From positions 1-37,548 of IMG/VR virus record IMGVR_UViG_3300037634_003268: a stretch of DNA of 37,548 nucleotides; one strand, written 5' to 3'. This DNA is from a virus. Its lineage: Duplodnaviria > Caudoviricetes. Made by a program: the position numbers and the translations under genes. How positions within the stretch are numbered: the stretch's first letter is position 1; each line of letters opens with the position of its first letter. Under the pieces are notes generated by a model, which saw only the letters and a list, made by a program, of their open reading frames with translations, made no database searches and had not been told where the DNA came from. This document shows, piece after piece, positions 1,943 through 16,479 of the stretch.

Positions 1943-2013
1943 GCCCTTATAGTTCAACAGTAGAATAAGAGATTTGTACCCTCTAGATCCTGGTGCGACA
2001 CCTGGTGAGGGCT
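1943..2013 (+). tRNA. tRNA-Thr(TGT), slightly atypical
   Basis: Acceptor GCCCTTA/TGAGGGC, anticodon arm AGAGA-TTTGTAC-CCTCT (A-C mismatch), T loop TGCGACA with T-T mismatch in stem. Confidence 0.7.
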
Positions 2014-2014
2014 T

Positions 2015-2081
2015 GGGACGAACAGAGTAGCTCTCTTTCCGATACCTTGATTATCGGATAGTCCCTTTATCAATCAAGGAG
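2015..2081 (+). ncRNA. HNH-leader RNA motif copy A (three-way junction plus SD-covering pseudoknot)
   Basis: P1 GGGAC/GTCCC, P2 GAG-TAGCT-CTC, P3 TCCGATA/TATCGGA, loop CCTTGAT pairs with ATCAAGG (2073-2079) overlapping SD AGGAG. Confidence 0.8.
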
Positions 2082-2087
2082 ATAAAC

Positions 2088-2132
2088 GTGAAGTATTGTA
2101 AGAAATGTAATGTGGAGGCTTTTCTTGAATAA
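2088..2132 (+). pseudogene. truncated HNH-like N-terminus (MKYCKKCNVEAFLE*)
   Basis: GTG start behind motif copy A; resembles MKCKNCNE and MKQCEYCSE starts of the two HNH genes. Confidence 0.55.
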
Positions 2133-2388
2133 GTTAGTTTGTAGATATACTAAGTCATTACGTAATACACCTTTTGAGCAAGAATTAAAGTTCAGTAATA
2201 GAAAGACTCTTCTCTATAGGTTTCATAAGTACGAAAGTCTCATTGTTGGATTAGTACTCCATGAAACTAATGGATGTGTAACTGCAGAAGGAATACCAGA
2301 AGCACAGAAACTGTTTCTTGCTTCTCCATACGATAAACAAATATGCATATTGAAGAGAGCGTTACTTGCTGTAGATCTCTTGACATAG
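2110..2388 (+). CDS. hypothetical protein
   Basis: 92 aa ORF filling the gap before the glycan operon; weak RBS. Confidence 0.4.
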   Translation: MWRLFLNKLVCRYTKSLRNTPFEQELKFSNRKTLLYRFHKYESLIVGLVLHETNGCVTAEGIPEAQKLFLASPYDKQICILKRALLAVDLLT

Positions 2389-2394
2389 GATAAC

Positions 2395-3258
2395 ATGAGA
2401 ATATTGTTTGTAGGTGTCTTCACAGAAGACAACCGTTCTACTAATGATGGGCAAGCAAGAGGATTAGAACAGAACGGACATGAAGTAATAAGATATAATT
2501 ATAGAATCCGAAAGGACGAACTTGGTTCTCAACAGAGAGATTCTGAAATTATATGTACTGCTGGTTATGGTTTGTGTGACTTAGTTATATTCTCCAAATG
2601 TAACGGAGTCAGTATTGAAGTAATAAGCCAGATAAAAGCAGTTGGTATACCTACTTGCTTGTGGTTTATGGATGCCTACCTTCCTAACCACTGGACAGAA
2701 GAACTCATACTTAAGATGCAGCACTGCACTTATGTATGTTGTGACAAGTACCAAGCCGTTGGTGCTGCGTTAAATTATAATCCACGCACATATCACGTAT
2801 GTGAAGGTTATGATGATGAAATAGACAAACCTTACAACTACAATAGAGATATAGATTGTTCCTTCATTGGTGACCCATATGGAAATAGGGGCGCAATATG
2901 TAGGTTCTACAATATTAACATATTTCAATCCGCATATGGAGAGGAACATGCTAAGGTAGTTAGTAGATCTAAAATCAACCTAAACTTCTGTACAGGGGAC
3001 TGTGCATCAGATAGAGTCTATAAGATTCTTGGTGCAGGTGGACTACTGCTTACAGATGATTGGTATGGTAGATCTTCAGACCTTGAAGATGGCACAGATC
3101 TTGTTATATTTAATAATACATATGAACTTGCTCAGTTGATAAATAAGTATTTGGAAGATGATCATGCTGCACAAATCATAAGAGACAACGGTCACCAGAC
3201 AGTAAAGCAATATACCAGAAAGGAATGGGCAAGGAGGATAATAGAATATGCAAACTAG
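2395..3258 (+). CDS. glycosyltransferase, CgeB-like / GT-B (Glyco_trans_1_2-type C-terminus)
   Basis: MRILFVG N-terminus; SKINLNF...SDRVYKILGAGGLLLTD...IRDNGHQTV...YTRKEWARRI C-terminal pattern. Confidence 0.85.
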   Translation: MRILFVGVFTEDNRSTNDGQARGLEQNGHEVIRYNYRIRKDELGSQQRDSEIICTAGYGLCDLVIFSKCNGVSIEVISQIKAVGIPTCLWFMDAYLPNHWTEELILKMQHCTYVCCDKYQAVGAALNYNPRTYHVCEGYDDEIDKPYNYNRDIDCSFIGDPYGNRGAICRFYNINIFQSAYGEEHAKVVSRSKINLNFCTGDCASDRVYKILGAGGLLLTDDWYGRSSDLEDGTDLVIFNNTYELAQLINKYLEDDHAAQIIRDNGHQTVKQYTRKEWARRIIEYAN

Positions 3259-3937
3259 ATTATATCTTATATTAGCAAATACTAGATCTGGACACCATGG
3301 TATTATTAATTGGATCATGGCACAATTTCCAGGATACATATATCATAAGAATGCGTGGATCTATGATGCTAATCTCGATGAGATGCGATCTGACATGGAG
3401 AGAACTCCAGATGAAAGACATAATAATGGAGAACATAAAGCAGAAATTCGAAACTTTGAAGATTTCGATCTGCATTATTATAAAGACATACGTAGATTGG
3501 TTGAAACATTTAAAGTATGTACAATTATTGTATATAGGGGAGTAAGAAACTGGTTAGCGTCTCAAGTACGTAAGTACTCTATAACAGGAGATTCTGGAGC
3601 TATTAGTGTTAATATTGATGCATATGATCAATTCCTTAAAGAAGTACACGGAGAAACCCATCTTGTTCCAAATAAGCTTTGTATCAGCTTTGATAAGTGG
3701 TTTAGTAACCAGAAGTATAGAGAAGATATTGCAACATTACTTGAATTAGATTTTACTGACAATGGACTTAATGATCTTGGTATTCCTGGAGCTGGAAGCT
3801 CATTCGATGGTTATAAGTTTACAGATAATGCACAACACATGAATGTACTTAATAGACATGAACAAATGAAAGATTATCCCATTTATAATTTCTTTATGAA
3901 GGATGAGAGATTAATGAAGTGGGAAGCTATGGAGTAA
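3248..3937 (+). CDS. sulfotransferase-like (P-loop) protein, paralog 1
   Basis: N-terminal RSGHHGIINW resembles PAPS-binding loop; IIVYR..NWLAS; GSSFDG. Confidence 0.6.
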   Translation: MQTRLYLILANTRSGHHGIINWIMAQFPGYIYHKNAWIYDANLDEMRSDMERTPDERHNNGEHKAEIRNFEDFDLHYYKDIRRLVETFKVCTIIVYRGVRNWLASQVRKYSITGDSGAISVNIDAYDQFLKEVHGETHLVPNKLCISFDKWFSNQKYREDIATLLELDFTDNGLNDLGIPGAGSSFDGYKFTDNAQHMNVLNRHEQMKDYPIYNFFMKDERLMKWEAME

Positions 3938-3939
3938 GA

Positions 3940-4701
3940 ATGTTTAGCATAATAATTGTAACATTTAATAATATAAGATATTTACAACTCTGTATTGATA
4001 GTATAAATAAAAATAGCCATTTCGAAAATCAAATATTTGTACATGTCAATGGCGGAAATGATGGAACTACAGAATGGCTTGAAGAACAAGGAATTCCATT
4101 TACTCATACTGCAGAGAACATAGGACTAACTGCAGCAGCGAATCGTGTAGCTATAAAAGCATTCAACCGTTATGTGTGTCTGATAGATGATGATATGTAT
4201 GTTCTCCCCAATTGGGATAAAGAATTAATTAACTTCAAGAATGAAAATAATCTGAGTAATGAGGATTGGCTCTGCTGCACAGCAATAGAAAGGAATGCTG
4301 GATGTTCGGGATCTCTAAATGGAGATTATGGAGATATAGATACTTTTCATGAAGATGAACTATTAGCCGACTACAGACACATAAAGGCAGTGCCTATGGT
4401 TTGCACTCAACTCACTCCCCTCCTCATAGATCTTGTTACGTGGAAGAAGATAGGTGGCTATGATGAAGACTTTTGGGTCATAGGTGCAGAAGAAGGATTA
4501 GCAATGAGAATGCACAATAATGGATGTCAACATTTCGTCAGTGTACCTAAGAGCTTAGTTTATCATTTTCAATGTATTACATCTGACAAGATGCCTAATA
4601 GACAATTCCATTCTATACGTAGAGAGCAAGTATTTAGTGATAAGTATGGTATGACAACAAAGGATTTTAATGCTATTATAGGAAGAGGAAATAAATGGTA
4701 A
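3940..4701 (+). CDS. glycosyltransferase family 2
   Basis: MFSIIIVTFNN, NGGNDGT, IDDD (DxD), IGGYDEDF, VYH; start reassigned to ATG 3940 behind GGAG. Confidence 0.9.
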   Translation: MFSIIIVTFNNIRYLQLCIDSINKNSHFENQIFVHVNGGNDGTTEWLEEQGIPFTHTAENIGLTAAANRVAIKAFNRYVCLIDDDMYVLPNWDKELINFKNENNLSNEDWLCCTAIERNAGCSGSLNGDYGDIDTFHEDELLADYRHIKAVPMVCTQLTPLLIDLVTWKKIGGYDEDFWVIGAEEGLAMRMHNNGCQHFVSVPKSLVYHFQCITSDKMPNRQFHSIRREQVFSDKYGMTTKDFNAIIGRGNKW

Positions 4702-5438
4702 AGTCGTTTATAGTATATTCTAATAGTAGAAGTGGGCACCATGCAATCATTAATTGGATGGGAAAGCAACTTCCTGGTTATGTTGAACACCATAATAGTT
4801 GCACTAAAGAATTAGAACAAGGAAACTTAGTATCTGATACTGGAAGAATAGAAAAATATAATAATGGTGAAGATAGATATAACATATATAGTTTTGAACA
4901 ATTAGACATGAAACTATTGAGAAAGTTTGATGTTCCATCTATGGTTGAAAGTCCAACCAATATCATAATTATACGAGATATATTGAACTGGGCAGCATCT
5001 CTAACCTTTAAAGTTAAAGATTACAATGTCTTATGGGACCCATATGTAGATAGAGAAGGTAGGATCAGTTCTTCCATGATTAACATCTATAAAGATTTGC
5101 TCATTGAGGCTATAGATCGAACACTATATCCCACGGTAATAGGATACAATAAATGGACCACAGACGAAAACTATAGAAGTAATCTTGCTGGTGAGTTGGG
5201 TATGACATTTACTGATGATGGTTTTGAAGAGATGCCTTCATTCGGAGACGGAAGCAGCTTCTCCTATTTCCAATATGTAAATAAGGCAAGTAGTATGGAT
5301 ACACTTAATAGATGGAAGTATCTACCTGAAGGAGTTATAACAAGAATACTTTCCGATGCTCACCTTTTAGAATTAACCAGAAGCTGTCGTGATCTTATAG
5401 GACCAATTCCATGGATGGAACAAGGAGTACTTACATGA
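4695..5438 (+). CDS. sulfotransferase-like protein, paralog 2
   Basis: RSGHHAIINW, IIIRDILNWAAS, GSSFS; clear paralog of 3248-3937. Confidence 0.6.
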   Translation: MVKSFIVYSNSRSGHHAIINWMGKQLPGYVEHHNSCTKELEQGNLVSDTGRIEKYNNGEDRYNIYSFEQLDMKLLRKFDVPSMVESPTNIIIIRDILNWAASLTFKVKDYNVLWDPYVDREGRISSSMINIYKDLLIEAIDRTLYPTVIGYNKWTTDENYRSNLAGELGMTFTDDGFEEMPSFGDGSSFSYFQYVNKASSMDTLNRWKYLPEGVITRILSDAHLLELTRSCRDLIGPIPWMEQGVLT

Positions 5439-6016
5439 AAGCAATATCCGAACTAGATATACCTTCCTCATATAGACAAAACAAATACTGTAATGTCCTT
5501 GCTGGGATATGTTATACATTAAATCCTGGTAATATAGTTGAGTTTGGAATATTAGAAGGATACTCAACAGATGTATTTCTTAGATCTACTGATGCACAAA
5601 TAGTATCTTACGATTTGTTTGAATCTATTGGAGACTTCCCTGGAAACAGAAGCCAGTTTCATATTATACACGATAGATTTCACGAAGATATAGTTGAAGG
5701 TAGATTAATTTTGAGACCAAAAAGTTTCTATGATGCAGTAGATGATTTCTTGGATAATTCGATAGACTTAATACATATAGATATAGCAAATGATGGAGAT
5801 GTTTATGAGTTTGCTATTAATAATTATATGAGAAAATTAACATCTAATGGAATAATGATTCTTGAAGGAGGATCTCAAGAAAGAGATAATGTAGAATGGA
5901 TGATAAAATATAATAAGAGAAATATAGGCGAAGTAATAAAAAATACTAATGCATTGGTAATAGAATCATTTCCCTCTATTACTATTATGAGGAGAGGATA
6001 TGATACCATTATTTAG
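5435..6016 (+). CDS. class I SAM-dependent methyltransferase (Methyltransf_24-like)
   Basis: IVEFGILEGYST, SYD, IDLIHID, LTSNGIMIL motifs; ATG overlaps upstream TGA. Confidence 0.85.
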   Translation: MKAISELDIPSSYRQNKYCNVLAGICYTLNPGNIVEFGILEGYSTDVFLRSTDAQIVSYDLFESIGDFPGNRSQFHIIHDRFHEDIVEGRLILRPKSFYDAVDDFLDNSIDLIHIDIANDGDVYEFAINNYMRKLTSNGIMILEGGSQERDNVEWMIKYNKRNIGEVIKNTNALVIESFPSITIMRRGYDTII

Positions 6017-7121
6017 AGTATTTATGCATGAAGATGCCGTAGAAGCATCAGTAAAAGTATTGAGATCAGGATATATAGGTCAAGGTCCTGTGGTGGAACA
6101 GTTTGAAAAAGAACTATCTAATTATTTAGATGACAACGTAGTTACCACTAACTCTGCTACTTCCGCTGCACACTTAGCGTTTCATATGACAAAGAACTAC
6201 GATACCCAATATAGAGATGAAGTCCTTTGTACTGCTCTTACATGCACAGCAACTAATTGGCCTGTGCTTGCAAATGGACTAAAAATTAAGTGGGTGGACA
6301 TTGATCCTAATACACTTAATATGGACATAGATGATCTTGCAAGAAAAATAACTAATAAAACTCTAGCAATTAATATAGTTCATTGGGGTGGTTATCCAAT
6401 AGATTATAAGAAGATGTATGAGGCTCTCGATAAAACAGATGATGCAGTTTATAACTATCCTTCTGTAATAGAGGATTGTGCTCATGCCTTTGGTAGTACA
6501 TATGAAGGTTCACCATTATCTAATCAAGGTGGCTACTGTATATACAGTTTCCAAGCAATAAAACACCTTACATGCGGAGATGGTGGTGCTCTTGTACTTC
6601 CACACCTTAGTCATGTAGAAAATGCAAAACTACTCAGATGGTATGGTATAGATAGAAATACTAATAGTAAAGATTTTAGATGCGAAGCAGATATTCGTGA
6701 ATGGGGATTCAAGTTCCACATGAATGACATTAGTGCGTCTATAGGTCTTGCAAATCTTAAACATATTCAAAAAGAAGTTATTGACAAACATAAAGATAAT
6801 GCAGCATATTATTATGAAAAACTACAGGATATAGATGGTATAACTCTTCTTGAAAGAAAAGAAAATAGAGAATCAGCTTATTGGATATTCTCTTTGCTTG
6901 TAGATAGAAAAGCTGATTTCATGAAACATATGGCTGAGTGCAATATAATGGTAAGTCAAGTACATGAAAGAAATGACATACACTCATGTGTATTACAATA
7001 TAAATCAGCACTACCGAATCTAGATGCTACAATAGATAAGGTTATTTCTATTCCAGTGGGTTGGTGGGTAACTAAAGAAGATAGAGAATACATTGTAGAT
7101 TGTATAAAAAAGGGATGGTAA
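6000..7121 (+). CDS. DegT/DnrJ/EryC1/StrS PLP-dependent sugar aminotransferase
   Basis: GPVVEQFE, NSATSA, IEDCAHAFG, SFQAIKHLTCGDGG (catalytic Lys), ISIPV. Confidence 0.95.
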   Translation: MIPLFRVFMHEDAVEASVKVLRSGYIGQGPVVEQFEKELSNYLDDNVVTTNSATSAAHLAFHMTKNYDTQYRDEVLCTALTCTATNWPVLANGLKIKWVDIDPNTLNMDIDDLARKITNKTLAINIVHWGGYPIDYKKMYEALDKTDDAVYNYPSVIEDCAHAFGSTYEGSPLSNQGGYCIYSFQAIKHLTCGDGGALVLPHLSHVENAKLLRWYGIDRNTNSKDFRCEADIREWGFKFHMNDISASIGLANLKHIQKEVIDKHKDNAAYYYEKLQDIDGITLLERKENRESAYWIFSLLVDRKADFMKHMAECNIMVSQVHERNDIHSCVLQYKSALPNLDATIDKVISIPVGWWVTKEDREYIVDCIKKGW

Positions 7122-7859
7122 ATGATAAGTATACTTATTCCCACTTTGGGAAATCTACCATATTTAGATTTATATTGTAGATCTCTGGAAAAACATACAA
7201 CAGTACCATACGAAATAGTTATATGGAACAATGAAGCATCTGAGGATGTTAGAGACTTCTGTAGGTACAACCGCTATAGATACTTTGAATCAGACAATAA
7301 TCTAGGTATAACTAAACCATATAATATAATGGTTGAAGAATGTGCGTATGATATAATCTATTTATCTGACAATGATTTCTATGCACTTCCTGGATGGGAT
7401 GTAATAGCTAAGGAAGCCATAGAAGTGTATTGGAAGAGAGTATGCTTAATAGATCCCAGGATTGAGAAGATGAATAGATCTGTTATAGAAAATTTTGGAA
7501 CAGATCTAGGTTCATTCAGAGAAGCAGAATTAATAATGAAAACAGCTAATGTATCAGTTCCAGATGACGTTCTAGGACCTTATATGCCACCAGTACTCAA
7601 GAAGCAAGACTATATAAGTATTGGTGGGTTCAATGAAGACTTCTTCATTGGAGAACAAGATTTCTTGTGGAGATCTTATACATACTATAATAATGTTGGA
7701 TATACACAATATATAAGTTCTAATAGTTTTATGTATCACTTCGGATCTAAGACACCTAGAAAGTTTCCTGTGGGGGAGAAGAGAAGAGAATATACCTATG
7801 TAACAGAAACATATGGTATTACCCCAATTGAAATGGATAATATTATGGGAATAGTATGA
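7122..7859 (+). CDS. glycosyltransferase family 2
   Basis: MISILIPT, NLGITKPYN, SDND, IGGFNEDF, YHFGSKT. Confidence 0.9.
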   Translation: MISILIPTLGNLPYLDLYCRSLEKHTTVPYEIVIWNNEASEDVRDFCRYNRYRYFESDNNLGITKPYNIMVEECAYDIIYLSDNDFYALPGWDVIAKEAIEVYWKRVCLIDPRIEKMNRSVIENFGTDLGSFREAELIMKTANVSVPDDVLGPYMPPVLKKQDYISIGGFNEDFFIGEQDFLWRSYTYYNNVGYTQYISSNSFMYHFGSKTPRKFPVGEKRREYTYVTETYGITPIEMDNIMGIV

Positions 7860-8278
7860 CCACTATAAATGATGTAGTAAAATTCAAATACGACAGTATG
7901 GCAGATGATAAAATGCTAATTCCGTTAGAATATCCTAAGACAATGCCATTTCCTATAAAACGAATATTCTACGTTCATAGTATACCCGATACTGACAACA
8001 GAGGCAATCATGCTAATATAACATCGGAACAAATAATTATTTGTTTGACTGGTAGAATAAATGTTACTTGTCGCGATGGTATATCTATGCAGCAATGGAG
8101 TCTATGGCAGAATGATGCCATATATGTACCTAAAATGATATGGGATGAAGAGTCATTCTGTACCCCTGAAACTATTATGTTATCGCTAAATAGTACCATC
8201 TATAGTCGCGATTACTATATAGAAGATTTTGATATATTTAAACAACTTAAAAGAACAGACAAAAGTTGGGGATCATAG
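7856..8278 (+). CDS. FdtA/QdtA (WxcM-like) cupin, sugar 3,4-ketoisomerase family
   Basis: PFPIKRIFYV, RGNHAN, QIIICLTG, YVPKMIW, YIEDFDIF. Confidence 0.85.
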   Translation: MTTINDVVKFKYDSMADDKMLIPLEYPKTMPFPIKRIFYVHSIPDTDNRGNHANITSEQIIICLTGRINVTCRDGISMQQWSLWQNDAIYVPKMIWDEESFCTPETIMLSLNSTIYSRDYYIEDFDIFKQLKRTDKSWGS

Positions 8279-8369
8279 TATATCAAAGAAATAAGTACCC
8301 TTTAATTCGTTTATGGGCTATGATTGTTGTAGTTACGTTTATAATAGGTATTATATTTAAGAGAGAACC

Positions 8370-8576
8370 ATGAATCCTCCAATGACTCTACAAGAAAAAA
8401 TCACAAAAGTAATGTATCGCACAGTTAAAAATTGGGATGACGAAGAAGTATTATGCTTGTGGCATAATTGTTGCGATAAAGTGAAAAATGATGGAGAATC
8501 GGATAAAGTAAATGGAATCATTGATGCGTGTTGGAAAATTATTCAAGAAAGAGATCTAATTCCACCTGCGGGGTAA
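8370..8576 (+). CDS. hypothetical protein
   Basis: 68 aa ORF after intergenic gap with TATAAT at 8340-8345. Confidence 0.55.
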   Translation: MNPPMTLQEKITKVMYRTVKNWDDEEVLCLWHNCCDKVKNDGESDKVNGIIDACWKIIQERDLIPPAG

Positions 8577-8588
8577 CGGTGATTATGA

Positions 8589-8924
8589 ATGAACGATATG
8601 GAGGAATTCCTAGACGATTGGGATAAGGATGAAGGATATAGAGATAAGTTAAAAGCAAATGCCCTATGGATAGAAGCATTCAAAAAATCCAAGTTAATAG
8701 ATGCAGAAGATAAATTAACAAGGACAGTAGAATTACTCTATGATGATAAGATGTGGGACGTTATTCATGAGTCTAAAAGAATACAAGCAGAAGCAGAAAA
8801 AGATAGTCTTATAATGGTACCAAGGGAAGAGTGGAGAAGGATAACCAGAATCGTCTGGCTTCTCACTGGACTATTTACATTATTTGGTGGTTTATTCGCA
8901 GCAGCATTCTTCAAGTTGATTTAA
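8589..8924 (+). CDS. hypothetical protein with C-terminal transmembrane helix
   Basis: IVWLLTGLFTLFGGLFAAAFF. Confidence 0.65.
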   Translation: MNDMEEFLDDWDKDEGYRDKLKANALWIEAFKKSKLIDAEDKLTRTVELLYDDKMWDVIHESKRIQAEAEKDSLIMVPREEWRRITRIVWLLTGLFTLFGGLFAAAFFKLI

Positions 8925-8970
8925 GGAGTTATAAATGAAACGGAAATCTGGTAAACAGACAATCAAATAT

Positions 8971-9043
8971 ACCTCCGTAACTCAATGGCTAGAGTAACGG
9001 GCCTTTAACCCGTAGGTCGTCGGTTCGAGTCCGACCGGGGGTA
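8971..9043 (+). tRNA. tRNA-Lys(TTT) with C33
   Basis: ACCTCCG/CGGGGGT acceptor; ACGGG-CCTTTAA-CCCGT; GTCGG-TTCGAGT-CCGAC. Confidence 0.9.
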
Positions 9044-9047
9044 CTAT

Positions 9048-9119
9048 GCCTCCGTAGCTTAGTGGTAAAGCAGGGGATTCTTAATCCCAAGAGCGTTGGT
9101 TCAATCCCAACCGGGGGCA
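9048..9119 (+). tRNA. tRNA-Lys(CTT)
   Basis: GCCTCCG/CGGGGGC acceptor; GGGGA-TTCTTAA-TCCCA; GTTGG-TTCAATC-CCAAC. Confidence 0.9.
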
Positions 9120-9121
9120 CT

Positions 9122-9274
9122 ATGAACAAAAGACATAAATGGGGACTAGGATTAATATCTATCTTCGTTGGTATGTTCATAATATCAATTGCTACTGGAG
9201 AAATATTCGGAATAATTGCTTCACTAGCATTCATTATCATATTTGTTGTAGAACTGTTCTTCAGGAATAAATAA
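9122..9274 (+). CDS. small two-helix membrane protein
   Basis: MNKRHKW followed by two hydrophobic stretches; start moved to ATG after the tRNA. Confidence 0.55.
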   Translation: MNKRHKWGLGLISIFVGMFIISIATGEIFGIIASLAFIIIFVVELFFRNK

Positions 9275-9324
9275 TGTATACACAATGTTTACTAATACTA
9301 GGAGTTAGTACTTAAAAGATATAC

Positions 9325-9407
9325 GCACGAGTGGTGGAACGGTAGACACGCCAGCCTTAGAAGCTGGTGCTCAATAGGGCGTGAGAGTTCGACTCTCTCC
9401 TTGTGCA
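9325..9407 (+). tRNA. tRNA-Leu(TAG)
   Basis: GCACGAG/CTTGTGC acceptor, CCAGC-CTTAGAA-GCTGG, long variable arm, GAGAG-TTCGACT-CTCTC. Confidence 0.95.
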
Positions 9408-9473
9408 TGTTTTATCAACACATCAATGACGGAGGTCAACTGATGACAAAAGGAGTGCCATAGTACAATGTAA

Positions 9474-9488
9474 TCTCTCCTTGTGTAT
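9474..9488 (+). repeat. direct repeat of tRNA-Leu 3' end
   Basis: TCTCTCCTTGTGtAT vs TCTCTCCTTGTGcAT at 9394-9408. Confidence 0.6.
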
Positions 9489-9545
9489 ACGTAAGGGTAC
9501 GTAATTACAGCATTTAGGCTAACTAGTTATTATGGGGGGAGACTA

Positions 9546-9863
9546 ATGGTAAAAACAAAACGTATATTGAATCCTTCACTACCTATGCATTATAAGAGAA
9601 CTAAAGCTTATTATAGACATCAGCAACTTAGAGCAAGAGCTAAAGCAGAAAGATTAGTTAGAGAAATTTGGAAGTATGGACCCGGAGACGGTACCAGTGA
9701 ATCAACTATAGAAATGTTAATTCAAGCTCATGAGAAGAATAGAAAGAAATGTAGTTGTTCTATATGTTGTACTCCAAGAAACAATGTATGGTATAAAGAT
9801 CATACTAGACAAGAACGTATCGATAGATTCAATGTAGAGGAACAAATACAAGAAGCAGCTTAA
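9546..9863 (+). CDS. basic hypothetical protein with CSCSICC motif
   Basis: GGGAG RBS; Arg/Lys-rich N-terminus, KKCSCSICCTPR. Confidence 0.75.
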   Translation: MVKTKRILNPSLPMHYKRTKAYYRHQQLRARAKAERLVREIWKYGPGDGTSESTIEMLIQAHEKNRKKCSCSICCTPRNNVWYKDHTRQERIDRFNVEEQIQEAA

Positions 9864-9868
9864 AATGA

Positions 9869-9939
9869 GGGGCGTTAGTTCAATGGGAGAATTTGTGACT
9901 TGCACTCACAAGATGGGGGTTCGACTCCCCCACGCTCCA
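9869..9939 (+). tRNA. tRNA-Ala(TGC)
   Basis: GGGGCGT/ACGCTCC with G3:U70; TGTGA-CTTGCAC-TCACA. Confidence 0.95.
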
Positions 9940-9964
9940 TAAGTAGTTGAAATACAACAACTTA

Positions 9965-10036
9965 GGACCTATCTTATAGTGGTTATTATACCTGTCTGTC
10001 TAACAGGAGACGAGGGTTCGATTCCCTCTAGGTTCG
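9965..10036 (+). tRNA. tRNA-Asp(GTC)
   Basis: GGACCTA/TAGGTTC, G73; CCTGT-CTGTCTA-ACAGG; GAGGG-TTCGATT-CCCTC. Confidence 0.9.
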
Positions 10037-10037
10037 T

Positions 10038-10107
10038 GGAACGAAAAGGGTAGCTCCCCTTCCAGCACCGTGATTGCTGGATAGTTCCTTAATCCTATCA
10101 CGGAGGT
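10038..10107 (+). ncRNA. HNH-leader RNA motif copy B
   Basis: P1 GGAAC/GTTCC, P2 GGG-TAGCT-CCC, P3 TCCAGCA/TGCTGGA, loop CCGTGAT pairs with ATCACGG (10097-10103) overlapping SD GGAGGT. Confidence 0.85.
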
Positions 10108-10111
10108 AGAT

Positions 10112-10657
10112 ATGAAATGTAAAAATTGTAATGAAATTTTAGTACAAAAAGAAAAAGAAGAGAACAGACACTTTAAGAAAAGACAATTTTGTAATAGAAG
10201 TTGTTCAGCAACATTTAATAATAAGGGAACTAAGAGAGGACCTAAGCCCGTAGATCCAATTAGTATGTGTGCATGTGGAAACGAATTCACCATACATAGA
10301 TTGAAATCCGGAGCTTTATCTAAAACATTCTTATGTCCAGATTGTCGTCCAGCCAAAACTAAAGATGTTGATAATAGAACAAAACAATACTATTATGATA
10401 AAGGTTTAAGTAGTAGACAAGTTTCTGATAGAATAAGAACTATAGCAAGAAGAAGATTCAAAGGTTATGAGTGCGAGGTATGCGATTATGATTTATTCGT
10501 GGATGTTTGTCATATAATTCCCGTAGCAGATTTCGCTAATGATATACCTTTAAAAGTAATAAACAGCAGAAAAAATATCAGATTCCTATGTCCTAATCAT
10601 CATAGGGAACTTGATTCGGGATTTCTTCACGCAAGATCGGAGTTCGATTCTCCGTAA
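10112..10657 (+). CDS. HNH endonuclease with N-terminal Zn-finger repeats (HNH-1)
   Basis: CKNC, FCNRSC, CACG/CPDC; CEVC...DVCHIIP...N.RFLCPNHHRELD. Confidence 0.9.
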   Translation: MKCKNCNEILVQKEKEENRHFKKRQFCNRSCSATFNNKGTKRGPKPVDPISMCACGNEFTIHRLKSGALSKTFLCPDCRPAKTKDVDNRTKQYYYDKGLSSRQVSDRIRTIARRRFKGYECEVCDYDLFVDVCHIIPVADFANDIPLKVINSRKNIRFLCPNHHRELDSGFLHARSEFDSP

Positions 10658-10661
10658 GCTG
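10627..10661 (+). pseudogene. tRNA 3'-half remnant (Asp/Glu-like) embedded in the HNH-1 C-terminus
   Basis: TCAC-GCAAG-AT followed by perfect T arm CGGAG-TTCGATT-CTCCG; no matching 5' half. Confidence 0.6.
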
Positions 10662-10681
10662 GTTTCCCAAAGGAGTAACAA

Positions 10682-10915
10682 ATGATTTGTGCACAATGTA
10701 GAGAAGAAGGTAAGACAAGCACACTGAAAGTGAAACAACTAGGAAAGACATTGTTAGGGTGTCCGGGTGAGTTCTACGATGAAGTAGGCAAGTTTCATAT
10801 ACACGATCCTAACAGCATAGAAACACACTTTAAATGTAGTCAAGGTCACGAATGGACAGAGACATTAAAAGGATTTCCCTGTCCAACTTGCGGTATTAAA
10901 TATGACCTTCTGTAG
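10682..10915 (+). CDS. small Zn-binding hypothetical protein
   Basis: AAGGAG RBS; CAQC, CSQGH, CPTC; 3' end overlaps tRNA start. Confidence 0.75.
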   Translation: MICAQCREEGKTSTLKVKQLGKTLLGCPGEFYDEVGKFHIHDPNSIETHFKCSQGHEWTETLKGFPCPTCGIKYDLL

Positions 10916-10979
10916 CTTAGTCTGATAGAGCGCGTGAGTGAAGCCCACGAGGTCGTAGGTTCAAATCCTACCGGAAGGA
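10906..10979 (+). tRNA. tRNA-Phe(GAA), Pro-like body
   Basis: CCTTCTG/CGGAAGG; CGTGA-GTGAAGC-CCACG; GTAGG-TTCAAAT-CCTAC. Confidence 0.8.
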
Positions 10980-10983
10980 TACA

Positions 10984-11051
10984 TGCGGGGAGTTCTGGGA
11001 ACCGTAACCCTCATAAGGTTATCAAGGAAGGTTCGACTCCTTCTCCCGCAA
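10984..11051 (+). tRNA. tRNA-Met(CAT) with very short D loop
   Basis: TGCGGGG/TCCCGCA; GTTC-TGG-GAAC; TAACC-CTCATAA-GGTTA; GAAGG-TTCGACT-CCTTC. Confidence 0.75.
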
Positions 11052-11054
11052 TAC

Positions 11055-11088
11055 AGTGAAGTAGCTTAAGGGTAAAGCGCGACTCTCA
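11055..11088 (+). tRNA. 5' half of split tRNA(CAT) (Met or Ile2)
   Basis: AGTGAAG-TA-GCTT-AAGGGTA-AAGC-G-CGACT-CT-CA; pairs with 3' half at 11778-11815. Confidence 0.9.
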
Positions 11089-11093
11089 AATAT

Positions 11094-11159
11094 AGGACGA
11101 AAAGGGTAGCTCCCCTGTCAACTCTATACAGTTGACTAGTCCTTTTACTCGTATAGGAG
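11094..11159 (+). ncRNA. HNH-leader RNA motif copy C
   Basis: P1 AGGAC/GTCCT, P2 GGG-TAGCT-CCC, P3 GTCAACT/AGTTGAC, loop CTATAC pairs with GTATAG (11151-11156) overlapping SD GGAG. Confidence 0.85.
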
Positions 11160-11167
11160 TGATAAAC

Positions 11168-11704
11168 ATGAAACAGTGCGAATATTGTAGTGAAATTTTA
11201 ATACAAAGAGATACAGAATCAAATTACTATTTTAGAAAAAGAAGATTCTGTAATAAAAGTTGTTCTAATTTTCATTGCAAGAATGGTTTACATAATAAAA
11301 AATTATTAAAAACTAAAACATGCATTAGATGTAATACAGAATTTAACTTAGAAAGAAATGAACAAGGAAAATTCAAAGAAAGAAAAGTTTGTAATGATTG
11401 TCCGACTAACGCTCCAGGTATGGCAAACTATATGACTAAAGGGCAATTATTTGCTAGTAGATCATGGCAAGCAGCAAGAAGCACTATAGTTGATCATGCT
11501 AGAAGATTATATTTTAGTTGTAATGATAATCAGTGCAATGTGAATGAATGCACATACACTAATCATATAGAAGTTGCACACAAGAAAGCAGTGAAGGATT
11601 TTTCTGATGATACGCCAATATTAGATATCAACCATATAGATAACCTTATTGGTCTTTGTCCGAATCATCATTGGGACTACGATAACAGATTATTAAATCT
11701 TTAA
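11168..11704 (+). CDS. HNH endonuclease with N-terminal Zn-finger repeats (HNH-2), paralog of HNH-1
   Basis: CEYC, FCNKSC, CIRC/CNDC; EVAHKK...NHIDNLIGLCPNHHWDYD; ATG 11168 follows GGAG. Confidence 0.9.
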   Translation: MKQCEYCSEILIQRDTESNYYFRKRRFCNKSCSNFHCKNGLHNKKLLKTKTCIRCNTEFNLERNEQGKFKERKVCNDCPTNAPGMANYMTKGQLFASRSWQAARSTIVDHARRLYFSCNDNQCNVNECTYTNHIEVAHKKAVKDFSDDTPILDINHIDNLIGLCPNHHWDYDNRLLNL

Positions 11705-11777
11705 AGCGAAGTGGGGTAGCGGAAACTCGCGAAGATTCATAAACTTCGAGACATCGGTTCGAATCCGATCTTCGCCA
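11705..11777 (+). tRNA. nested intact tRNA(CAT), A1:C72 mismatch (initiator-like)
   Basis: AGCGAAG/CTTCGCC; GGGT/ACTC; CGAAG-ATTCATAAA-CTTCG; ATCGG-TTCGAAT-CCGAT; starts on the base after the HNH stop. Confidence 0.85.
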
Positions 11778-11815
11778 TAAGGTCGTGAGTGTGGGTTCGA
11801 GTCCCACCTTCACTA
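11778..11815 (+). tRNA. 3' half of split tRNA(CAT)
   Basis: TAA-GGTCG-TGAGT-GTGGG-TTCGAGT-CCCAC-CTTCACT-A; CTTCACT is the exact complement of AGTGAAG at 11055. Confidence 0.9.
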
Positions 11816-11851
11816 TGTAGCAATTATGTTACTTAATTTGAGGATTTAAAA

Positions 11852-15905: not shown

Positions 15906-15910
15906 AACTT

Positions 15911-15945
15911 GGAAGCGACCCGGAAGGATGAGGACACAGTCTTGA
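15911..15945 (+). pseudogene. 5' half of tRNA-Ser(TGA)
   Basis: GGAAGCG...ACAGT-CTTGA, matches GGAAGTA...GCAGT-CTTGA of the intact tRNA-Ser at 16397. Confidence 0.7.
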
Positions 15946-16397
15946 TAAAGTATACAGAAGAACAACTTAGGTGTATTATCCCCAGATCTTATACTTGGGC
16001 AAGTGTCTGTAGGGAATTAGGAATACCAACGGCTGGAGGAAGTCAAGCTCATTTGAAATCTAGAGCTGAAAAATATGGTATAGATTATTCTCACTTCAAG
16101 AGTAGAGCATGGAACAAAGGTTTAAAGGTACCTCATAGAAATATTGAAGACATATTAGTAAAAAGGACAAAAGGTAATAGACAAAGTGCTCATATGTTGA
16201 GAAGAGCATTAGATGAATTCGGAATATCATATAATTGTTTCGAATGTGGTGCATCTGAATGGAGAGGCAAACCATTACGATTAGAAGTAGATCATATTAA
16301 CGGAAATAAATTAGATGATAGAATAGAGAATCTAAGATATATGTGTCCTAATTGTCACTCTCAGACAGACACATATAAGAACAAAGTCAGAAATTAG
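15942..16397 (+). CDS. HNH endonuclease (HNH-3), different subfamily with N-terminal HTH-like region
   Basis: CFECGASEWRGKPLRLEVDHINGNKLDDRIENLRYMCPNCHSQT; probable TTG start 7 nt after GAGGA. Confidence 0.9.
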   Translation: MIKYTEEQLRCIIPRSYTWASVCRELGIPTAGGSQAHLKSRAEKYGIDYSHFKSRAWNKGLKVPHRNIEDILVKRTKGNRQSAHMLRRALDEFGISYNCFECGASEWRGKPLRLEVDHINGNKLDDRIENLRYMCPNCHSQTDTYKNKVRN

Positions 16398-16479
16398 GAA
16401 GTACGGTCATTGGCGCGACAAGCAGTCTTGAAAACTGTCACTCCGTAAGGAGCTGTTGGTTCAATTCCAGCTACTTCCG
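16397..16479 (+). tRNA. tRNA-Ser(TGA)
   Basis: GGAAGTA/TACTTCC, G73; GCAGT-CTTGAAA-ACTGT; long variable arm CTCC-GTAA-GGAG; first G is the last base of HNH-3 TAG. Confidence 0.92.

Follow-up and report, generated by a model that had tools for sequence, protein, structure and literature searches.

A portable four-helix RNA leader of phage nuclease genes with a predicted loop-loop kiss over the ribosome-binding site

Introduction

The closest described counterparts of the RNA considered here come from the T-even phages, whose homing endonuclease genes I-TevI, I-TevII, I-TevIII and segB, together with mobE of Aeh1, are known to be controlled by hairpins that sequester the ribosome-binding site (RBS) (PMC2988022). 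The same account leaves open, even for T4, how the majority of free-standing homing endonucleases in phages are controlled (PMC2988022). Here we examine a structured RNA leader that occurs in three copies in a stretch of 37,548 nucleotides (nt), positions 1 to 37,548 of the IMG/VR virus record IMGVR_UViG_3300037634_003268 (Duplodnaviria; Caudoviricetes). This whole stretch, called the window below, contains a tRNA cluster and derives from a large phage genome, of which it covers a fragment (the record is 18% complete). An original prediction, made from the letters of the window alone, had taken the copies for a covarying three-way-junction RNA of no recognized family, in which a pseudoknot formed by a loop masks the Shine-Dalgarno (SD) sequence of HNH endonuclease genes.

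The likeness to the T-even hairpins as described (PMC2988022) is considerable: both accompany homing-endonuclease genes of phages, both pair an SD that lies about 8 nt before the start codon, and in both a limit on synthesis is presumed. The T-even hairpins, however, are simple, specific to their gene and removed by an internal late promoter. The leader, by contrast, forms a single conserved family of four helices that stands before unrelated nucleases and has both a loop-loop kiss and a loop complementary to itself; where a promoter is seen, it lies upstream of the first helix, P1. The leader thus resembles known RBS-occluding leaders of phage homing endonucleases, and is a four-helix kissing family without a match in Rfam.

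Fold and covariation of the leader

A covariance model, metagenome searches and a table of neighboring genes, which were among the checks proposed with the original prediction, extend the three copies to a family. Pattern scans of viral and metagenome contigs gave at least 287 instances and at least 169 distinct copies, most of them found with patterns that fix the core, and the classes of the family are not phylogenetically independent. P1 has 4–6 base pairs (bp), P2 has 3 bp and P3 has 6–7 bp (7 in 130 of 169 copies), joined by the junction C-GAA-NN / NN / UA-G. The junction nucleotides C-GAA, G-C and UA-G are nearly invariant across types, and we read C-GAA/UA-G as a putative structural tandem of a sheared G.A and a non-canonical A.U pair that would stack P1 on P3. 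Covariation is seen at nearly every pair of P1 and P3. P2 appeared invariant at first because the search patterns fixed it; among copies found by other routes it reads GGC/GCC, GGA/UCC, GUG/CAC or GAU/AUC, and the closing pair of P1 can also be G-C or U.G.

The loop of P3 (L3) is complementary to the strand before the start codon, with at least 6 bp in 69 of 77 unique loops (shuffled mean 2.0, maximum 9) and 62 distinct kissing hexamers. This strand ends 7–8 nt ahead of the start codon in 114 of 151 cases. It is enclosed by a further helix, P4, which also pairs the remaining SD bases: P4 reaches at least 3 bp in 93 of 100 non-redundant copies (shuffled mean 46.7, maximum 60), closes exactly on the kissing strand in 88 of the 100, and the SD is wholly covered in 61 of 75 copies. 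Two-sided changes occur at all four P4 pairs and, over the five helices, at 23 of 25 pairs in an alignment fitted to P1–P3 only. The covariation score is 0.68, against 0.08–0.13 for slid-register controls; as the shuffles ignore relatedness, these controls and the 62 distinct hexamers are the safer evidence. Helices that change sequence and yet keep pairing, first noted for three copies, are thereby confirmed across the family.

Because P4 presents the strand as a loop (L4) of 6–7 nt, the pairing is more aptly called a loop-loop kiss, in which L3 meets an RBS hairpin. L3 and L4 have the same length (6/6 or 7/7 nt) and are fully paired in 82 of 93 copies. The pairing proposed as a pseudoknot is borne out by covariation, but P4 had been missed, and occlusion of the SD is more complete than was claimed. 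Two other candidates, L2 (the loop of P2) with the free end of the SD and a CUCCCCU strand with the SD, were dropped, as P4 accounts for those SD bases.

By comparison across the family, the predicted helices P1–P4, the pairing of L3 with L4, the coverage of the SD and the link to nuclease genes of unrelated families can be regarded as established. We infer that the fold forms in vivo. On the model of the RBS hairpins of I-TevI–III, segB and mobE (PMC2988022), the leader probably represses translation.

Extent of the family

How widespread is this leader? Two of the pattern scans had an estimated ~240 and ~380 matching stretches, chance matches included, and one further scan raised the total to at least 182 distinct copies with a kiss of at least 5 bp. 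Of 186 distinct pattern matches, 39 failed the strict parser, several of which the model scored as real; L188–L190, being duplicates of the window copies, were left out of the counts. When 50 whole records were searched with the model, single genomes had up to seven copies, and a cultured Escherichia phage, EP_H11 (OP688485.1), has a 79.6-bit copy before an unannotated open reading frame (ORF) of 303 amino acids (aa). In GTDB genomes the strict pattern of the UAGCU class, the class scanned there, matched a single contig, so this class is almost absent from cellular assemblies. A blast match in a Pseudomonas phage was set aside as chance.

No Rfam 15 family covers the motif at gathering or permissive E-values, in keeping with the earlier impression of an unnamed family, and only tRNAs pass the gathering threshold in the window. 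The int-alpA covariance model (RF02996) has no match at E<=10 in the window or in any of five other motif-carrying genomes. Literature searches, which did not cover the supplementary sequence files of PMC10690425 and PMC5737381, turned up no account of the family. One listed candidate comes near: DNAVirus_7989 of Fremin et al. 2023, a 51-nt element from 100 freshwater phage sequences with 59 Endonuclease_7 genes at most 25 bp downstream (PMC10690425), which, compared by its table entry only, may be part of the family. A term search of the main text of that paper gave no discussion of HNH or endonuclease genes. The leader family is real, widespread and absent from Rfam.

Within a nuclease family its distribution is patchy, as a leader stands at only 4 of 80 Endo VII homologue loci picked regardless of the RNA, three of the four on contigs already in the set. 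With the HNH protein of the window as query, viral contigs gave one relative, in a genome without a leader copy. Two genomes have 6–7 copies each, with several L2 loops and related nucleases (G015: L054, L502–L507; G034: L458, L508–L511, L521), and differing L2 loops within one genome may avoid cross-talk. The three window copies share the same L2 and differ in their L3/L4 code. Further afield, four GC-rich relatives (L524, L527 and L529, near 595–675, and L548, 165–230) retain the three-way junction (32–36 bits) with the loop UUCGC.

Downstream genes and the exchange of leaders

As with the T-even hairpins, the genes behind the leader are mostly homing-endonuclease-like: of 46 downstream protein clusters, 41 have nuclease or homing-endonuclease families among their Pfam or PHROG matches, and window copies 2 and 3 stand before such genes too. 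Some of the matches are weak, and that of L455 is through an associated repeat alone. Four of the other clusters have no nuclease match and one (L415) was not scanned. In a separate set of 31 proteins, mostly later finds, 29 are of nuclease type. The folds comprise Endo VII, HNH, GIY-YIG, LAGLIDADG (L122) and PD-(D/E)XK (L195). Pairing pattern and gene links thus support the core of the original prediction, a cis-acting leader with covarying helices that masks the SD in front of mobile nucleases.

Leader and gene can also part company. L048 and L109 have an identical leader, with 98% identity over 100 upstream bases, and their ORFs change at the ATG from HNH to GIY-YIG-like; conversely, L001 and L290 encode proteins 95% identical behind leaders 58% identical, with each helix compensated. 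From these sequence comparisons, leader and ORF evidently reassort.

Could the element then act at the level of DNA, as a cassette or recombination site, or serve the nuclease as a guide or scaffold RNA? The exact swap at the ATG and the near-identical proteins behind different leaders would suit a cassette. Guide or scaffold RNAs of the HEARO/OMEGA type go with one cognate nuclease family and have a variable guide segment. Here all five nuclease types stand downstream and neither a single cognate family nor a spacer-like segment is seen, while the tolerance of G-U pairs and the constant spacing relative to SD and start codon indicate a function in the mRNA. We regard the DNA-level, guide and scaffold roles, the last of which the original prediction had raised, as the most improbable of the explanations weighed here. 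The same diversity, together with the identical leader before HNH and GIY-YIG-like genes, speaks against its suggestion that the HNH protein gates the leader.

The second loop and a possible intermolecular kiss

L2 offers a hint to the state in which the leader might close. The L2 loops seen first, UAGCU and UUGCAA, are both self-complementary, and palindromic centres related by double changes recur as AGCU, AAUU, GAUC, UGCA and GGCC. Free-loop scans and whole-genome model searches added the loops UGGCCA, CGGCCA, UUAGCG, UGACGG, UAAUU, GAUAU, UGAUC, CCUGCAG, UCGCU and UUGCU. Palindromes account for 6 of 11 L2 tetramer classes (P ~0.002, or 0.026 if the two search-seed classes are left out), compared with 16 of 77 L3 loops. 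A scan designed in advance for 5-nt loops whose centre is not G yielded 27 stretches, in which the three distinct complete copies (two already known, one new) all had AAUU or GAUC; four junction-only relatives had a CG centre. A self-complementary centre that is kept through double changes, in a loop whose adjacent bases cannot pair together, suggests pairing between molecules. L2 class also tracks the linker between P1 and P4, which measures 7–15 nt with UUGCAA and YGGCCA and 0–11 nt with UAGCU and UUAGCG.

Interactions of this kind are well represented among natural RNAs. In the phi29 pRNA, a three-way-junction RNA assembles hand in hand through a complementary loop pair, with its copies head to tail. 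Palindromic kissing loops of 2–6 nt are known dimer interfaces, as in HIV-1 DIS, the GACG loops of MoMuLV and guanidine-II, and antiparallel head-to-tail dimers are documented (PMC7357161). The leader shares with these systems a self-complementary loop of that size and a complementary loop pair on a three-way-junction RNA, but in its case the RBS hairpin of the RNA itself would form part of the interface; literature searches found no cis-regulatory dimer with its own RBS hairpin in the interface.

The explanation we favor, which we consider quite possible though short of probable, is a portable leader in which the L3–L4 kiss locks the ribosome site between two mRNAs, aided by L2, and so caps the nuclease as transcripts rise. 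L3 of the three-way junction would pair with L4 of the SD-bearing hairpin and shut the ribosome site, with L3 of molecule A on L4 of molecule B, the reverse contact alongside, and L2 with L2 at the centre. The resulting dimer or oligomer would have head-to-tail partners whose palindromic L2 loops meet on a two-fold axis. In 28 of 93 copies, among them copies 1 and 3 of the window, the linker is no longer than 2 nt, and rough A-form geometry suggests that at linkers of 0–2 nt L4 would point away from L3, which would make a kiss that keeps both hairpins intact far easier between two molecules. Locking that depends on dimerization would flatten nuclease output as genome and transcript copies increase, without any protein, a property suited to a cassette that passes from one phage to an unrelated one. 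That the closed state is a dimer or oligomer we infer with less support than repression itself. A stricter form, an RNA-only dosage sensor in which the leader is its own antisense, arranged head to tail, sites lock only at raised transcript concentration and the hypervariable L3/L4 code would give each nuclease cassette a separate channel, seems to us a tentative possibility.

The main rival is a constitutive damper within one molecule, where L3 pairs the SD strand of its own transcript, by a kiss at long linkers and by a pseudoknot replacing P4 at short ones, L2 is a tight loop or tertiary contact, and the nuclease is made during rare breathing. It draws on the same covariation data; linkers of 5 nt or more in 53 of 93 copies would permit it, the mean stacking energy of the kiss (-10.2 kcal/mol, loop costs excluded) is of the same order as that of SD:anti-SD pairing (-7.4), and type II hammerhead RNAs are described as pairing loop I with a tail just past stem II (PMC3088659). 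It leaves unexplained, however, why double changes in L2 (GC to AU or UA) keep a self-complementary centre and why P4 closes exactly in 88 of 100 copies, while 0–2-nt linkers hamper a cis kiss with P4 intact. We consider this damper rather unlikely.

Several observations weigh against an intermolecular, nuclease-restraining leader and deserve to be gathered. Its support is sequence comparison, and the steric argument is a rough geometric estimate. At the longer linkers (>=5 nt) an intramolecular kiss is possible, and short-linker copies could melt P4 into a plain cis pseudoknot, as type II hammerheads do beside stem II (PMC3088659). The L2 classes are few and related, and 5 of the 11 are not 4-nt palindromes (CGCU, UGCU, AGCG, AUCU, GACG), four of these five still having a GC or CG centre. 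For most 5-nt-loop hairpins the extended-duplex energy is nothing out of the ordinary, with 16–89% of random loops doing as well, and dimerization by an extended duplex through P2 is disfavored for 5-nt loops. Not every gene behind a leader is a nuclease: L499 (675–747, minus strand; GAUC loop) heads a replication-initiator-like ORF, where a dose sensor would fit copy-number control, L500 (696–781, plus strand; GACG loop) heads a portal-like ORF, and the EP_H11 ORF has no Pfam or PHROG match. Finally, the GC-rich relatives L524, L527, L529 and L548 keep the junction but lack the kiss, with no ORF evident after L524 and L529, the two inspected, which seemingly lie within a longer structured RNA.

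Promoters, tRNAs and the question of gating

A full sigma70-like promoter precedes 32 of 169 copies, 31 of them from one protein cluster, and 68 of 169 follow an ORF; copies that have neither these contexts nor a neighboring tRNA were left unassigned. In 50 of 165 copies a -10 box is found 5–7 nt ahead of P1, where the background gives 1.65 per position, so that the leader often forms the 5' end of the message. Inside window copies 2 and 3 there is no sigma70-like site (phage-specific late promoters were not searched). A called tRNA lies within 25 nt of 23 of 169 copies and about four more are recognizable by their T-arm, so that ~27 of 169 follow a tRNA, with gaps of 1–20 nt; within -400..+1200 a tRNA is present in 39 of 169, leaving most copies without one nearby. 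With the -10 boxes upstream, this speaks against gating by tRNA processing, another proposal of the original prediction, as a general mechanism. Given these contexts and the unrelated nuclease folds, the HNH domain and tRNA processing both fall away as a general gate.

A gate of another kind might still exist, with a host or phage factor or a metabolite acting on the junction or L2 to open or close the kiss, be it riboswitch-like or with dimerization as an ON signal late in infection. The nearly invariant junction would fit, as would the late derepression described for T-even nucleases (PMC2988022), and since many copies have their own promoter a late timing, if any, would have to be set by the RNA. 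Yet, freed of ascertainment bias, L2 and P2 vary widely, so that few nucleotides remain to form a pocket; the nuclease is excluded as a shared ligand, and no alternative fold is seen. Taken over all its forms, we think such a switch unlikely.

The position behind tRNAs and the shape of the fold also recall small ribozymes. The leader and type II hammerheads (PMC3088659) share a three-way junction with one open stem, then C-GAA(A), and A-G before its 3' strand, as well as a loop paired to the 3' tail; in the leader P1 is open, P2 and P3 are closed and L3 pairs 3' of P1. Theta ribozymes, minimal relatives of the hepatitis delta virus (HDV) type, are likewise small structured RNAs directly 3' of phage tRNAs (PMC10879173), a position taken here by a minority of copies. 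The theta arrangement, with a 5' end within ~5 nt of the tRNA 3' end, is found at two of the window copies and not family-wide.

A self-cleaving RNA, perhaps dimeric and hammerhead-related, could trim tRNA trailers or free the SD after a delay. Hammerheads acting as dimers reportedly exist, and a palindromic stem III mediates hammerhead dimers. The hammerhead consensus has a CUGANGA core strand between stems I and II. In the leader this strand is absent, J3/1 is only 2 nt, the positions before it covary as P3, and the tail forms an RBS hairpin at a fixed distance from the start codon. Nor does it have an HDV-like fold, with the nested double pseudoknot or catalytic-C junction of theta; the copies are mostly not adjacent to tRNAs, those that are have variable gaps, and all stand 5' of an SD. 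A ribozyme, which the original prediction had mentioned as an alternative, therefore loses its hammerhead core, and we grade it as very unlikely.

The three copies in the window

All three copies lie where they were first described, with the P1, P2 and P3 and the loop complementarity then given, as both the sequence and the covariance models confirm (Table 1). The 20-nt core occurs three times in the window, against 0.02 expected by chance, and none of 100 shuffles reaches three. Folding of the copies revealed P4 as UUUAUC/GAUAAA, CCU/AGG and UUACUC/GAGUGA in copies 1, 2 and 3. With filters off, neither of two covariance models finds a fourth copy in the window; a weak match at 2227–2281 (9 bits, first model) vanished with the broader model.

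Table 1. Leader copies, tRNAs and ORFs in the window.
Feature	Position	Strand	Evidence and details
tRNA-Thr(TGT)	1943..2013	+	directly upstream of copy 1
Leader copy 1	2015..2086	+	covariance model 58.7 bits, folding; P1 2015-19/2061-65; J1/2 GAACA; P2 2025-27/2033-35, loop UAGCU; P3 2038-44/2052-58; L3 2045-51; J3/1 UA; P4 2066-71/2081-86; L4 2072-80 (kiss 2073-79); P1–P4 linker 0 nt
14-codon ORF	2088..2132	+	GTG start, CxxC-like opening; headed by copy 1
tRNA, GTC anticodon (Asp, from sequence)	9965..10036	+	54.3 bits; directly upstream of copy 2
Leader copy 2	10038..10106	+	covariance model 63.6 bits; P1 10038-42/10084-88; P2 10048-50/10056-58; P3 10061-67/10075-81; L3 10068-74; P4 10094-96/10104-06; L4 10097-103; P1–P4 linker 5 nt
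HNH endonuclease ORF, 181 aa	10112..10657	+	PF13391, Cys-rich N-terminus; headed by copy 2
5' half of split tRNA(CAT)	11055..11088	+	ends in anticodon loop
Leader copy 3	11094..11162	+	covariance model 70.4 bits; P1 11094-98/11139-43; P2 11104-06/11112-14; P3 11117-23/11130-36; L3 11124-29; P4 11145-50/11157-62; L4 11151-56; P1–P4 linker 1 nt
HNH endonuclease ORF, 178 aa	11168..11704	+	PF13391; headed by copy 3
tRNA-Met(CAT), complete	11705..11777	+	within insertion
3' half of split tRNA(CAT), orphan	11778..11816	+	

Copies 1 and 2 begin 2 nt past the final base of their upstream tRNAs and copy 3 lies between the halves of the split tRNA(CAT), as had been noticed. The proposal that the leader masks the SD of HNH genes holds for copies 2 and 3, but not for copy 1, which heads the 14-codon ORF. 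The two HNH ORFs score 23.3 and 20.8 bits for PF13391 (cut-off 21) and share 32% identity; the first overlaps a tRNA T-arm remnant at its 3' end (10635–10655). The 14-codon ORF is likely the remnant of a lost nuclease gene, and a search behind copy 1 gave no convincing nuclease remnant (best tblastn E 0.006, 21% identity). The region that follows (2141–2300) looks non-coding and folds into a long predicted hairpin (-31.1 kcal/mol, a single fold value without shuffle control) that includes a GAA...UA junction-like segment at 2227–2281.

Copy 3, its HNH gene and the complete tRNA-Met lie as an insertion within the anticodon loop of an older tRNA(CAT) (11055–11816), whose halves ARAGORN calls as tRNA-Met(CAT) only once they are joined. 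With the insertion comes a tRNA that has diverged but reads the same codon by an unchanged anticodon, which would be predicted if the nuclease destroys its own target. In the region 15909–16479 a third HNH ORF, without a leader, lies between a tRNA-Ser(TGA)-like 5' half (15911–15945) and a complete tRNA-Ser(TGA). By its layout this looks like another anticodon-loop insertion with a replacement tRNA; against this, the 5' half joined to the 3' part of the full tRNA-Ser gives no tRNA call. Between copies 1 and 2, a cluster of ORFs (2395–8278) has a glycosyltransferase-, aminotransferase- and methyltransferase-like appearance, and its first ORF, the only one scanned, matches PF13524.

Implications

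The family would offer one portable answer to the restraint of nucleases, common to at least four unrelated nuclease folds. Its strong covariation, its size of 75 nt and a copy in a cultured coliphage make it directly testable in Escherichia coli. If the closed state is a dimer, the leader would be a natural, protein-free concentration sensor for translation, and its at least 62 natural kissing codes would be possible orthogonal parts for synthetic biology. An RNA-only dosage sensor, if confirmed, would be something categorically new. Such feedback without protein would allow selfish nucleases, whatever their fold, to pass between unrelated phages together with their own expression control.

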